Source: Escherichia coli (GTDB lineage: Bacteria; Pseudomonadota; Gammaproteobacteria; Enterobacterales; Enterobacteriaceae). Taken from it: a stretch of 64,000 nt of DNA. Shown here piece by piece: positions 455 to 14,685 of this stretch (positions are counted from its first letter, which is position 1; each line of letters opens with the position of its first letter). The notes beneath the pieces are model-generated. The model searched no databases and had not been told where the DNA came from. It saw only the letters and a list, made by a program, of their open reading frames with translations. The stretch lies in NCBI RefSeq assembly GCF_003334385.1, contig NZ_QOWN01000006.1. One strand, given 5' to 3'. The translations under genes were made by a program, and so were the position numbers.

Positions 455-1602
<1,148 letters not shown>

Positions 1603-1607
1603 TTACC

Positions 1608-2219
1608 TCATAACGCGGCGCGTAGGGCTTCGCGAATTAAAGTTTCACTGCTGGCGTCAGGGCGAGCGATTTTGCTCACCATGCGGCTTGCTTCTTGTGG
1701 TTTATAGCCCAGCGCCACCAGCGCGGCAACCGCTTCTTGTTCAGCATCGTCGGTCGCCGGGCTGGCAGGAGACGTGAGTACCAGGTCGGCGGCTGGCGTA
1801 AAGAGATCGCCATGCAAACCTTTAAATCGGTCTTTCATTTCAACAATCAAGCGTTCGGCGGTTTTTTTGCCAATACCCGGCAGTTTCACCAGTGCCCCCA
1901 CTTCTTCACGCTCAACGGCATTAACGAACTGCTGCGCTGACATTCCGGAGAGGATCGCCAGCGCCAACTTCGGGCCGACGCCGTTGGTTTTGATCAACTC
2001 TTTGAACAATGTGCGCTCTTGTTTATTGTTAAAACCGTACAGCAGTTGCGCGTCTTCACGCACCACAAAGTGGGTGAAAACGATCGCTTCCTGACCCGCT
2101 TCAGGGAGTTCATAAAAACAGGTCATCGGCATATGCACTTCATAGCCTACGCCGCCCACTTCAATTAACACCAGCGGGGGTTGTTTTTCAATGATGATGC
2201 CTCTGAGTCTGCCTATCAC
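1608..2219 (-). CDS. ruvA: Holliday junction DNA-binding protein RuvA
   Basis: 203-aa ORF beginning [12 protein letters not shown]; 8-nt gap to ruvB indicates an operon. Confidence 0.97.
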
Positions 2220-2270
2220 ATGACGCTCCTGCGTAATGAATCAAAGATAATGCTGTATGATAAAAAAATG

Positions 2271-2286
2271 CTGGATAGATATCCAG
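2271..2286. promoter_or_regulatory. LexA (SOS) box upstream of ruvAB
   Basis: ctggatagatatccag fits CTG-N10-CAG and sits about 50 bp upstream of the ruvA start. Confidence 0.6.
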
Positions 2287-2493
2287 CGAAGGATGAAGAA
2301 AACTTGCGAGGTGTCTCGATGAACTGAAAAATGGCACAGTATAATTTATTCTACAGGTTATATTGGAAGCAAATATTTTAATATTACATATTCAGTGAAG
2401 AAATGCGTAATAAAAATATACATTGCGCCTCCTGAAAAAATAAATTTTTTATGCTATTACGTATATTTGTATCTATTTCAATGGAATGACAAC

Positions 2494-3096
2494 GTGAATA
2501 TTAATTACCCTGCTGAATATGAAATTGGAGATATCGTCTTTACATGTATAGGTGCTGCCTTATTTGGTCAAATATCAGCTGCATCAAATTGCTGGAGTAA
2601 TCACGTCGGGATCATTATCGGTCATAACGGTGAAGACTTCCTGGTTGCAGAAAGCCGGGTTCCCCTTTCAACCATCACCACGCTATCTCGTTTTATTAAA
2701 CGTTCGTCTAATCAACGCTATGCTATAAAGCGATTAGACGCTGGGCTGACAGAACGACAAAAACAACGAATTGTTGAACAGGTTCCCTCCCGGCTACGCA
2801 AACTTTACCACACCGGTTTTAAATACGAATCTTCGCGCCAGTTCTGTTCAAAATTTGTTTTTGATATTTATAAAGAAGCGCTATGTATTCCGGTGGGTGA
2901 AATAGAGACGTTTGGAGAATTGTTAAATAGCAATCCGAATGCAAAACTCACTTTCTGGAAATTCTGGTTCCTGGGTTCTATTCCGTGGGAGCGTAAAACC
3001 GTCACGCCAGCCAGTTTGTGGCATCATCCGGGTTTGGTGTTGATTCATGCGGAGGGAGTGGAAACGCCTCAGTCGGAACTGACCGAGGCGGTATAA
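2494..3096 (+). CDS. yebB: Uncharacterized protein YebB (GTG start)
   Basis: Six-frame ORF 2395..3096; start moved to in-frame GTG at 2494 to give the 200-aa length I recall for YebB. Confidence 0.8.
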
Positions 3097-3097
3097 C

Positions 3098-3619
3098 TTA
3101 ACGCAGTCGCCCTCTCGCCAGGTTCAGCCGCGATTCGCTCATCTGCATCGCATTCTGACTAACGTGGCAGTGGGTGATAGCAATCGCCAGCGCATCGGCG
3201 GCATCCGCCTGTGGATTAGCGGGCAGTTTCAGCAAGGTGCGGACCATATGCTGCACCTGGCTTTTTTCGGCACTGCCAATACCTACCACCGTTTGCTTTA
3301 CCTGACGTGCCGCGTATTCAAATACTGGCAACTCCTGATTCACCGCCGCCACAATCGCCACGCCGCGCGCCTGGCCCAGTTTCAGGGCTGAGTCAGCGTT
3401 CTTTGCCATAAAGACTTGTTCAATGGCGAAATAATCAGGCTGGAACTGGGTGATGATTTCCGTCACGCCCGCATAGATGAGTTTCAGACGAGACGGTAAA
3501 TCATCCACTTTGGTGCGGATGCATCCGCTACCCAGGTAGGACAGTTGCCTACCTACCTGGCGGATGACGCCGTAGCCGGTCACGCGCGAACCCGGATCAA
3601 TGCCGAGAATAATAGCCAT
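3098..3619 (-). CDS. ruvC: Crossover junction endodeoxyribonuclease RuvC
   Basis: Translation [18 protein letters not shown] recognised as RuvC; 173 aa from the second Met. Confidence 0.95.
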
Positions 3620-3653
3620 CACGCGTCTCCGTTTTGCTGTTTAGCAGGCCTCA

Positions 3654-4394
3654 TCAGAGAGTCGCTGCGACCTCATCAGAGATTTCACCGTTATGGTAAA
3701 CTTCCTGCACGTCGTCGCAATCTTCCAGCATATCGATCAGACGCATCAGTTTCGGTGCGGTTTCTGCATCCATATCAGCTTTGGTAGACGGGATCATGGA
3801 AACTTCCGCGCTGTCTGCTTTCAGACCTGCCGCTTCCAGAGCGTCGCGCACTTTACCCATTTCTTCCCATGCAGTGTAGACATCAATCGCGCCGTCATCA
3901 TAGGTCACAACGTCTTCAGCACCTGCTTCCAGTGCTGCTTCCATGATGGTGTCTTCATCGCCTTTCTCGAAGGAGATCACGCCTTTTTTGCTGAACAGAT
4001 AGGCAACGGAACCATCAGTACCGAGGTTACCGCCACATTTGCTAAATGCATGACGCACTTCAGCAACGGTACGGTTGCGGTTGTCAGACAGACATTCAAT
4101 CATGATTGCCGTGCCGCCAGGACCGTAACCTTCGTAGATGATGGTTTCCATGTTTGCATCATCATCACCGCCCACACCACGTGCAATTGCGCGGTTCAGT
4201 GTGTCACGGGTCATGTTGTTAGACAGTGCTTTATCCACCGCCGCACGCAGACGCGGGTTAGCGTCCGGATCGCCACCGCCCAGCTTAGCCGCGGTTACCA
4301 GCTCACGAATGATTTTAGTGAAGATTTTACCGCGCTTAGCATCCTGCGCAGCTTTACGATGTCTGGTGTTGGCCCATTTACTATGACCTGCCAT
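3654..4394 (-). CDS. yebC: YebC/PmpR-family transcriptional regulator
   Basis: 246-aa ORF beginning [23 protein letters not shown], upstream of ruvC on the same strand. Confidence 0.95.
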
Positions 4395-4422
4395 AAAAAT
4401 ATCTCCAGATAGCCCTGCCTGT

Positions 4423-4875
4423 TCAGGCAGCGTTAATTACAAACTGTTCAATCGCCTGCCGGTTGCTCCAGGACTTAGTGAGCGCCGCCGCAGCAGGCGC
4501 ATCAAGCCACTTGTAAGCCAGATGTTCAGTGAAAACGATCTGCCGCTCGTGCGGAAGCGCAAGACAGAACCATGATTCCGTATTACGCGTCACGCCCGGC
4601 GCATAGCGATGACGTAAATGTGAAAAAATTTCAAACTCTACCGTGCGCTGACAGTCAATTAAGGTCAGTTGTTCAGCGACAACATCAATGGTGACCTCTT
4701 CCTTTACTTCGCGCATGGCAGCTTGCGGCGCGGTTTCACCCTCTTCCACGCTGCCGGTTACCGACTGCCAGAAATCGGGATCGTCACGCCGCTGCAACAT
4801 CAGCACCCGTTTCGTATCTTGTGCGTAGATGACCACTAAGATCGAAACGGGACGCTTATACACTTTATCCTTCAC
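4423..4875 (-). CDS. nudB: Dihydroneopterin triphosphate pyrophosphatase NudB (GTG start)
   Basis: Translation from in-frame GTG ([15 protein letters not shown]..., 150 aa) matches NudB; Nudix box present. Confidence 0.9.
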
Positions 4876-4992
4876 GCTGCCTCTTCGTTGACTGCCTTCG
4901 CTCATCCCATTCACATAGTTATCTATGCTCATGGGAGTTCACTCAGTTGCCGCCTCGATGCAACGCGAATGATTTCGTGTATTTGAGTCATA

Positions 4993-6765
4993 TCAGTTAT
5001 TCTCAGCCTTCTTCACAACCTGAATGCTCAGCTCAGCCAGTGCAGTCGGGTTAGCAAAGCTCGGTGCTTCAGTCATCAGACACGCTGCCGCCGTGGTTTT
5101 CGGGAAGGCGATAACGTCACGGATATTGTCGGTGCCGGTCAGCAGCATGGTCAGACGGTCAAGACCGAATGCCAGACCTGCGTGCGGCGGAGTACCGTAT
5201 TTCAGAGCGTCGAGCAGGAAGCCGAATTTCTCGCGCTGTTCCTCTTCGTTGATACCCAGAATACCAAACACCGTCTGCTGCATATCACCATTATGGATAC
5301 GTACTGAACCACCGCCCACTTCGTAACCATTGATGACCATATCGTAAGCGTTCGCCACCGCATTTTCCGGTGCAGCTTTCAGTTCTGCAGCCGTCATATC
5401 TTTCGGTGAGGTGAACGGATGGTGCATTGCCGTCAGGCCGCCTTCACCGTCGTCTTCAAACATCGGGAAGTCGATAACCCACAGCGGTGCCCATTTGCTT
5501 TCGTCGGTCAGACCAAGGTCTTTACCCACTTTCAGGCGCAGTGCACCCATCGCGTCGGCAACAATTTTCTTGTTGTCGGCACCGAAGAAAATCATATCGC
5601 CATCTTGCGCGGCAGTACGATCCAGGATGTCTTCGATGATTTCTGCATTAAGGAACTTCGCTACCGGGCTGTTGATACCTTCCAGACCTTTCGCGCGTTC
5701 GTTAACTTTGATGTAAGCCAGACCTTTCGCGCCGTAGATTTTAACGAAGTTACCGTATTCGTCGATCTGCTTACGGGTCAGCGATGCGCCGCCCGGAACG
5801 CGCAGAGCCGCTACGCGACCTTTCGGATCGTTCGCCGGACCTGCAAATACAGCAAACTCAACAGATTTCAGCAGATCAGCAACGTCAGTCAGTTCCATCG
5901 GGTTACGCAGATCCGGTTTATCAGAACCATAACGGCGTTCTGCTTCCGCAAAGGTCATTACCGGGAAATCGCCCAGATCCACACCCTTCACTTCCAGCCA
6001 CAGATGACGCACCAGCGCTTCCATCACTTCACGCACTTGCGGCGCGGTCATGAAAGAAGTTTCCACATCGATCTGAGTAAATTCAGGCTGACGGTCAGCA
6101 CGCAGGTCTTCGTCACGGAAGCATTTAACGATCTGATAGTAACGGTCAAAACCGGACATCATCAGCAGCTGTTTGAACAACTGCGGGGATTGCGGCAGTG
6201 CGTAGAATTTACCTTTGTGCACACGAGAAGGCACCAGGTAGTCACGCGCGCCTTCCGGCGTGGCTTTGGTCAGCATCGGAGTTTCGATGTCGAGGAAGCC
6301 GTGGTCATCCATAAAACGGCGCACCAGGCTGGTGATTTTAGCGCGGGTTTTCAGGCGCTGAGCCATTTCCGGACGACGCAGGTCGAGGTAGCGGTATTTC
6401 AGACGCGCTTCTTCGGTGTTGACGTGGTTAGAGTCAAGCGGCAGAACATCTGCGCGGTTGATGATAGTCAGCGAGGACGCCAGCACTTCGATTTCGCCGG
6501 TCGCCATATCGCGGTTAATATTTTTTTCGTCACGCGCACGTACGGTGCCCGTGACCTGAATGCAGAACTCATTACGCAGTTCAGAGGCCAGCTTTAACGC
6601 GTCCGCACGATCCGGATCGAAAAATACCTGCACGATACCTTCGCGGTCGCGCATATCGATGAAGATCAGGCTACCAAGATCACGACGACGGTTGACCCAA
6701 CCACACAGAGTCACCTGCTGCCCCACGTGGGACAAACGGAGCTGTCCACAATATTCTGTACGCAT
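4993..6765 (-). CDS. aspS: Aspartate--tRNA ligase
   Basis: 590-aa ORF with class II aminoacyl-tRNA synthetase motifs; recognised as AspS. Confidence 0.97.
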
Positions 6766-14375: not shown

Positions 14376-14685
14376 AGATTCCTCTAATTAAATTACTGGA
14401 CACCGAAATCATTGTATAATTAAATATACAACGAATTAACCGCTTGCATAATTAGGCACAACACTGCCTGAAACAATCGATAAAGAATATGATTTATTAC
14501 AATGTAATCATTAATTGCTAAGGAATAACCCAGTTGCTATTTAGAATATATATTTATCAGTTTTAGTAATTTAAATCCCATAATTAATGTGAATATATAC
14601 AATATTTTTAGCACAACGCTATGCGCACTGTCACCCGCTCAACAGATCACGGTTATCGTTCGTTTTTTATACTGTTCAGGGATAA

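Follow-up and report, generated by a model that had tools for sequence, protein, structure and literature searches.

The palindrome at 2288-2269 is almost certainly the LexA operator of the Escherichia coli ruvAB operon. This operator is a textbook feature, already known, and is no discovery on our part. It was examined within a stretch of 64,000 nucleotides of E. coli DNA (the window), in which positions 1500-3700 show 100% identity to genomes of E. coli K-12 and find a match in each of the 5,426 complete E. coli genomes that were searched. Over that region, the K-12 annotation gives the gene order ruvB-ruvA-yobI-yebB-ruvC, and places nudB and aspS beyond yebC (Table 1). An initial annotation of the sequence had put a LexA box at 2268-2289, about 50 bp upstream of ruvA, and both statements proved accurate. 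The string that it quoted (ctggatagatatccag) is found at 2271-2286 on the plus strand, and the span contains the full 20-mer (2269-2288). Counted to the ruvA start codon, the CTG-N10-CAG core is 51 nt away and the 20-mer 49 nt, in agreement with the stated distance of about 50 bp. Its larger claim, that ruvAB belongs to the SOS regulon through this box, is upheld by an identical published motif, by overlap with the promoter, by half-sites conserved in 84/84 loci, and by lexA3-dependent induction. An Rfam scan of 1500-5200 matched no RNA family. Elsewhere in the window, the convergent znuB/ruvB intergenic region (~460-600) contains two REP-like palindromic units (…gtcggatgcggcgcgagcgccttatccgacctac… and …gccggatgcggcgcgagcgaccaatccgacttac…).

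Table 1. Genes and sequence elements at the ruvAB locus, in window coordinates
Feature	Position	Strand	Basis and remarks
ruvB	589-1599	(-)	336 aa; second in the operon, separated from ruvA by 8 nt
ruvA	1608-2219	(-)	203 aa; GTG start at 2219; first gene of the regulated operon
Shine-Dalgarno AGGAG	2226-2230	(-)	6 nt before the ruvA GTG; kept as AGGAGC in relatives
-10 hexamer TATCAT	2257-2262	(-)	consensus scan; 17-nt spacer from the -35 hexamer
T7 run	2262-2268	(-)	directly after the palindrome; 3' half of the promoter spacer; candidate U-tract
LexA (SOS) box, 20-mer CGCTGGATATCTATCCAGCA	2269-2288	(-)	sequence, PWM, published motif, conservation
Hairpin palindrome GCTGGAT-ATCT-ATCCAGC	2270-2287	(-)	terminator scan; putative, terminator-like with the T7 run
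CTG-N10-CAG core CTGGATAGATATCCAG	2271-2286	strand-neutral	core of an SOS box
-35 hexamer TGGATA of the ruvAB promoter	2280-2285	(-)	consensus scan; inside the LexA box; invariant in relatives
yobI	2358-2423	(-)	K-12 annotation
yebB	2494-3096	(+)	K-12 annotation
ruvC	3098-3619	(-)	K-12 annotation
yebC	3654-4394	(-)	K-12 annotation

The two arms of the box (GCTGGATA and TATCCAGC) flank a central TC and make up an 8+8 inverted repeat. The box differs from the consensus TACTG(TA)5CAGTA at 8 of 20 positions, and the differences are symmetric: the ends read CG..CA, each half-site has G/C as its fourth base, and the center has C/T. Consequently, we regard it as an operator of middle strength, under which much basal expression persists. 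A window-wide scan for the consensus TACTGTATATATATACAGTA with three or fewer mismatches gave no match, and since the ruvA box exceeds three mismatches to that consensus, a weight matrix was chosen. This matrix was a symmetrised PWM derived from 17 other E. coli sites (Table 4 of PMC3009722), with ruvA left out. On the leave-one-out matrix, the ruvA box scored 18.4 bits, within the range of the 17 training sites (13.4-28.7 bits), and ranked first among 63,981 window positions. The same score was reached in 1/300 shuffles of the window and in 1/5000 shuffles of the ruvA-yebB intergenic region.

These scores bear on whether the site could be a chance AT-rich palindrome in AT-rich intergenic DNA, with no regulatory function. 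The bare pattern CTG-N10-CAG is common, with 25 occurrences in the window compared with 12.9 in dinucleotide shuffles, and is therefore weak evidence by itself. We ascribe the surplus to the use of CTG/CAG as codons, a feature lost on dinucleotide shuffling. The ruvA-yebB intergenic region is also only 31% G+C, a setting in which such palindromes might arise. However, the top rank on the matrix and the rarity of equal scores among the intergenic shuffles are hard to reconcile with chance, as are a site that stays invariant in 84 related loci while its flanks diverge and the lexA dependence of ruvAB induction (PMC11228462). The probability of a chance origin is negligible, and that reading is effectively refuted by the conservation and the published expression data.

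No LexA-like site was found in the regions upstream of ruvC, yebC, and nudB, where the best matrix scores were -6.2, 0.9, and 0.95 bits, respectively. The initial annotation had likewise seen no such box upstream of ruvC. In this window, then, it is ruvAB and not ruvC that belongs to the SOS regulon, and the biology of the SOS response is unchanged. Several other candidates were scored and rejected. Another CTG-N10-CAG lies at 2324-2339 (minus strand CTGTGCCATTTTTCAG / ACTGTGCCATTTTTCAGT), 19 nt beyond the stop codon of yobI and 38 bp upstream of the true box. It reached 6.6 bits, lower than any known LexA site and lower than the average best score among the shuffles (11.7). Its CTG is absent in another Escherichia locus (L010), the pattern is unconserved within the genus, and it is probably a product of chance. 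A half-site abutting the box at 2251-2270 (8.7 bits) has a CAG that is not conserved in relatives. The second-best score in the window, 15.8 bits, belongs to 14585-14604 (TATTGTATATATTCACATTA) in the AT-rich cutC-torY intergenic region, approximately 210 bp upstream of torY, where TTG/CAT replaces CTG/CAG; this is probably not a LexA site. Scorers at 33521 and 36516 (11-12 bits) were in the chance range or without the invariant triplets.

Conservation was assessed in a scan of RuvA relatives, with one genome per species, that listed 80 Enterobacteriaceae loci of 502 relatives, and in six extra loci from Pectobacterium, Serratia, Providencia, Erwinia, Dickeya, and Pantoea that were reached via RuvA homologues. 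Among the Enterobacteriaceae loci listed, CTGGAT-N4-ATCCAG was present upstream of ruvA in all those with upstream DNA (78/78), and it was present in the six from other Enterobacterales (6/6). The half-sites CTGGAT/ATCCAG were without variation in all 84 of the other Enterobacterales ruvA loci examined. The motif stands 47-52 nt before the ruvA GTG in 76/78 Enterobacteriaceae loci; a leader insertion lengthens this distance to 175 nt in the remaining two. The four central bases were variable (ATCT, AAAT, ATTT, AAAC, ATGT, GTTT, ATTC, ATGC), and in the alignment the sequence flanking the block of box and promoter diverges freely among relatives. Invariant half-sites around a variable center are what a dimer contacting the outer bases would be expected to give. 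By itself, though, a conserved palindrome cannot tell protein binding from hairpin formation.

Between 2100 and 3800, the only sigma-70-like site detected was TGGATA-17-TATCAT on the ruvA strand, and the LexA box spans its -35 hexamer and the first half of its 17-nt spacer. An operator over the -35 hexamer and spacer is the usual layout for repression by promoter occlusion. The -10 pattern TATNAT is kept across the Enterobacteriaceae alignment, and we infer a ruvAB transcription start near 2250. In a genomic-SELEX study of the RpoD holoenzyme, the hexamers listed for ruvAB are these same ones, TGGATA-17-TATCAT (PMC3946193), and the RpoS holoenzyme was found by genomic SELEX to bind the ruvA-yebB spacer as well (PMC5493296). 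The genomic-SELEX tables give that spacer (2220-2494) as binding both RpoD and RpoS holoenzymes and flag it as H-NS-associated. After UV, the ruvA promoter showed biphasic activity, and a promoter predictor made no sigma-70 call for it (PMC5999292). The biphasic kinetics and the lack of predicted sigma-70 use therefore argue for further inputs on the ruvA promoter, and the SELEX results (RpoD, RpoS, H-NS) and the biphasic UV response each suggest inputs beyond LexA.

The LexA motif given for ruvA among UV-induced genes in Table 4 of PMC3009722, the 25-mer TTCGCTGGATATCTATCCAGCATTT, matches the window sequence. The ruvAB SOS box goes back to Shinagawa et al. 1988 and Benson et al. 1988, as cited in PMC4080785; this review describes SOS boxes at the ruvAB promoter and induction via LexA derepression, cites primary literature in which LexA binding at the ruvAB box is reported, and notes that ruvC is not regulated in this way. 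The initial annotation had proposed to compare ruvA induction by DNA damage between a lexA(Ind-) strain and the wild type, and published work has already given a positive answer. In RNA-seq with AZT, ruvA rose 2.0-fold and ruvB 2.8-fold, and in lexA3 (non-cleavable LexA), the two were 1.9-fold and 2.6-fold lower (PMC11228462). Both genes were also induced by ciprofloxacin, with log2 fold changes of ~1.0-1.6 (PMC11002266). In Salmonella, ruvA was absent among nalidixate-induced loci and was put on the SOS list by hand (PMC8072944). The heterology index of the ruvA box is 7.6 (PMC11228462), below the cut-off of 15. What marks an SOS box was thus found together at this site: the core, a matrix score and heterology index in range, overlap with the promoter, and conservation at orthologous promoters. 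Damage induction of ruvAB is weak, about 2-fold, and the operator is weak and leaky, on a promoter with other inputs.

In our reading, a LexA dimer binds CTGGAT and ATCCAG, half-sites that span the -35 hexamer TGGATA together with the first half of the spacer, so bound LexA would compete with RNA polymerase, presumably by steric exclusion. Upon DNA damage, RecA-stimulated self-cleavage of LexA then clears the promoter and lets ruvAB transcription go up modestly, about 2- to 3-fold. A site of the form CTGGAT-N4-ATCCAG is not known to us for any other regulator. It is very improbable that the palindrome is the operator of a non-LexA regulator whose site resembles an SOS box. Such a regulator might account for half-sites whose fourth base is G/C where the consensus has T/A, and for UV kinetics of the ruvA promoter that are atypical for SOS genes (PMC5999292). 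However, CTGG/CCAG half-sites also occur in the accepted LexA sites of cho, recN, dinI, uvrD, uvrB, and dinB (PMC3009722), and expression depends on LexA cleavage (PMC11228462).

LexA binding is compatible with an additional role for the same DNA. The palindrome and its T7 run may act as an intrinsic terminator on RNA arriving from upstream, a possibility that we rate somewhat below an even chance. Such a terminator would stop transcription of yebC-ruvC in most Enterobacterales and, in E. coli, that of yobI or of other RNAs reading through, and would thereby shield ruvAB from upstream transcription. The terminator scan flagged GCTGGATATCTATCCAGC followed by ATTTTTTTAT on the ruvA strand, and as RNA, the E. 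coli palindrome folds at -10.6 kcal/mol (fold z = -6.4). The ruvC stop lies 0-12 nt before the palindrome in 54/85 loci, where the arrangement is that of a terminator, with a G+C-containing hairpin and a U-tract ~10 nt past the stop. In these ruvC-adjacent loci, the palindrome is nearly always GGCTGGAT-N4-ATCCAGCC, an 8-bp stem of -12.6 kcal/mol, followed by T6-7. The outer GG..CC lowers the LexA score (14.9 compared with 18.4 bits) and strengthens the stem. The full 8-bp palindrome occurs in 52/54 ruvC-adjacent loci and 13/31 non-adjacent loci, and a T-run of at least five in 54/54 and 28/31 (82/85 overall), counts that are uncorrected for phylogeny. The T-run is nearly invariant even though it lies outside the 20-bp LexA site.

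Tentatively, and with rather more doubt than confidence, we propose a three-in-one element of ~45 bp in most Enterobacterales, comprising a yebC-ruvC terminator (GGCTGGAT-N4-ATCCAGCC + U7), the LexA operator, and the ruvAB -35 hexamer and spacer. Such an element would explain why the outer bases are G/C instead of the T/A of the LexA consensus, why a T-run beyond the LexA site does not vary, and how the adjacent ruvC (in the non-SOS yebC-ruvC unit) and ruvAB are separately controlled. Judged by gene arrangement, E. coli is the unusual case, as ruvC abuts the box in most relatives. As part of the three-in-one proposal, and held no more firmly than the whole, the outer stem pair in E. coli may have decayed to CG..CA, with yebB and yobI inserted between ruvC and the box. 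We found no description of an overlap between a ruvC terminator and a LexA box in the literature searched. If the proposal is true, a single palindrome would serve as operator in DNA and as terminator in RNA, a compact case and a modest curiosity.

There are reasons for caution about a terminator. An E. coli Term-seq supplement puts the ruvC 3' end at window position 3050, within yebB in antisense, and lists no 3' end at yobI or ruvA; another Term-seq compilation has no entry for ruvC, yobI, or ruvA. For species in which ruvC is adjacent to the element, a search of such datasets turned up no mapped 3' ends. In E. coli, the upstream neighbor of the element is the tiny yobI. The stem is invariant, hence without compensatory changes, and for this reason covariation cannot support it. 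Conservation of the T-run may come from its place in the promoter spacer beside the -10 hexamer. The association with ruvC adjacency is drawn from counts that ignore phylogeny, and GG..CC may be the ancestral state where no insertion happened. The ruvC end given by the published Term-seq falls ~45 nt beyond the ruvC stop codon, in antisense to yebB; the two genes converge, with their stops 1 nt apart. At position 3073 (+), the Term-seq supplement sequence has C and the window has T, changing a yebB codon between Pro and Ser.

The gap between ruvC and the operator (window 2289-3097; compared across loci L002-L087) is an insertion hot spot. It has received yebB in Escherichia (with yobI), Pseudocitrobacter, and some Citrobacter, Kluyvera, Klebsiella, and Superficieibacter, and other cargo in Kosakonia (~1.9 kb) and Dickeya (a NicO-family gene). 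Among the loci compared, yobI is detectable in Escherichia only. Despite these insertions, the box, T-run, and -10 hexamer remain with ruvA in every case. In Pectobacterium atrosepticum (L082, 1290-1436), ruvC is directly followed by a truncated box (GGCTGGATATTCATCC, with TAGT next to it); 127 nt further downstream comes an intact one (TGCTGGATATTCATCCAGCC + T6). It looks as if ~110 bp had been inserted into the palindrome with partial duplication.

For annotation, the value of this case is that a reader with sequence alone can pick out a real SOS operator. Set beside known systems, the box shows no difference from the E. coli K-12 ruvAB SOS box: CGCTGGATATCTATCCAGCA is identical and stands at the same position upstream of ruvA in the same organism. 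The cho LexA box (CACTGGATAGATAACCAGCA) shares with it CTG-N10-CAG, an AT-rich center, and the half-sites CTGGAT on the left and CCAG on the right, and the heterology indices are alike (7.5 for cho and 7.6 for ruvA; PMC11228462). Among gammaproteobacterial SOS boxes, cho is grouped with others of middle strength, to which the ruvA box is akin. The two differ in that the ruvA box has full 8+8 symmetry and a T7 run behind it, whereas the cho box is asymmetric. The element resembles canonical intrinsic (Rho-independent) terminators in its G+C-containing stem of 7-8 bp, its 4-nt loop, the U-tract of 6-7 that immediately follows, and, in most relatives, its location ~10 nt beyond a stop codon. In contrast to such terminators, the putative stem here is also a protein operator with a -35 hexamer, and its stability in E. 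coli (-10.6 kcal/mol) is moderate.
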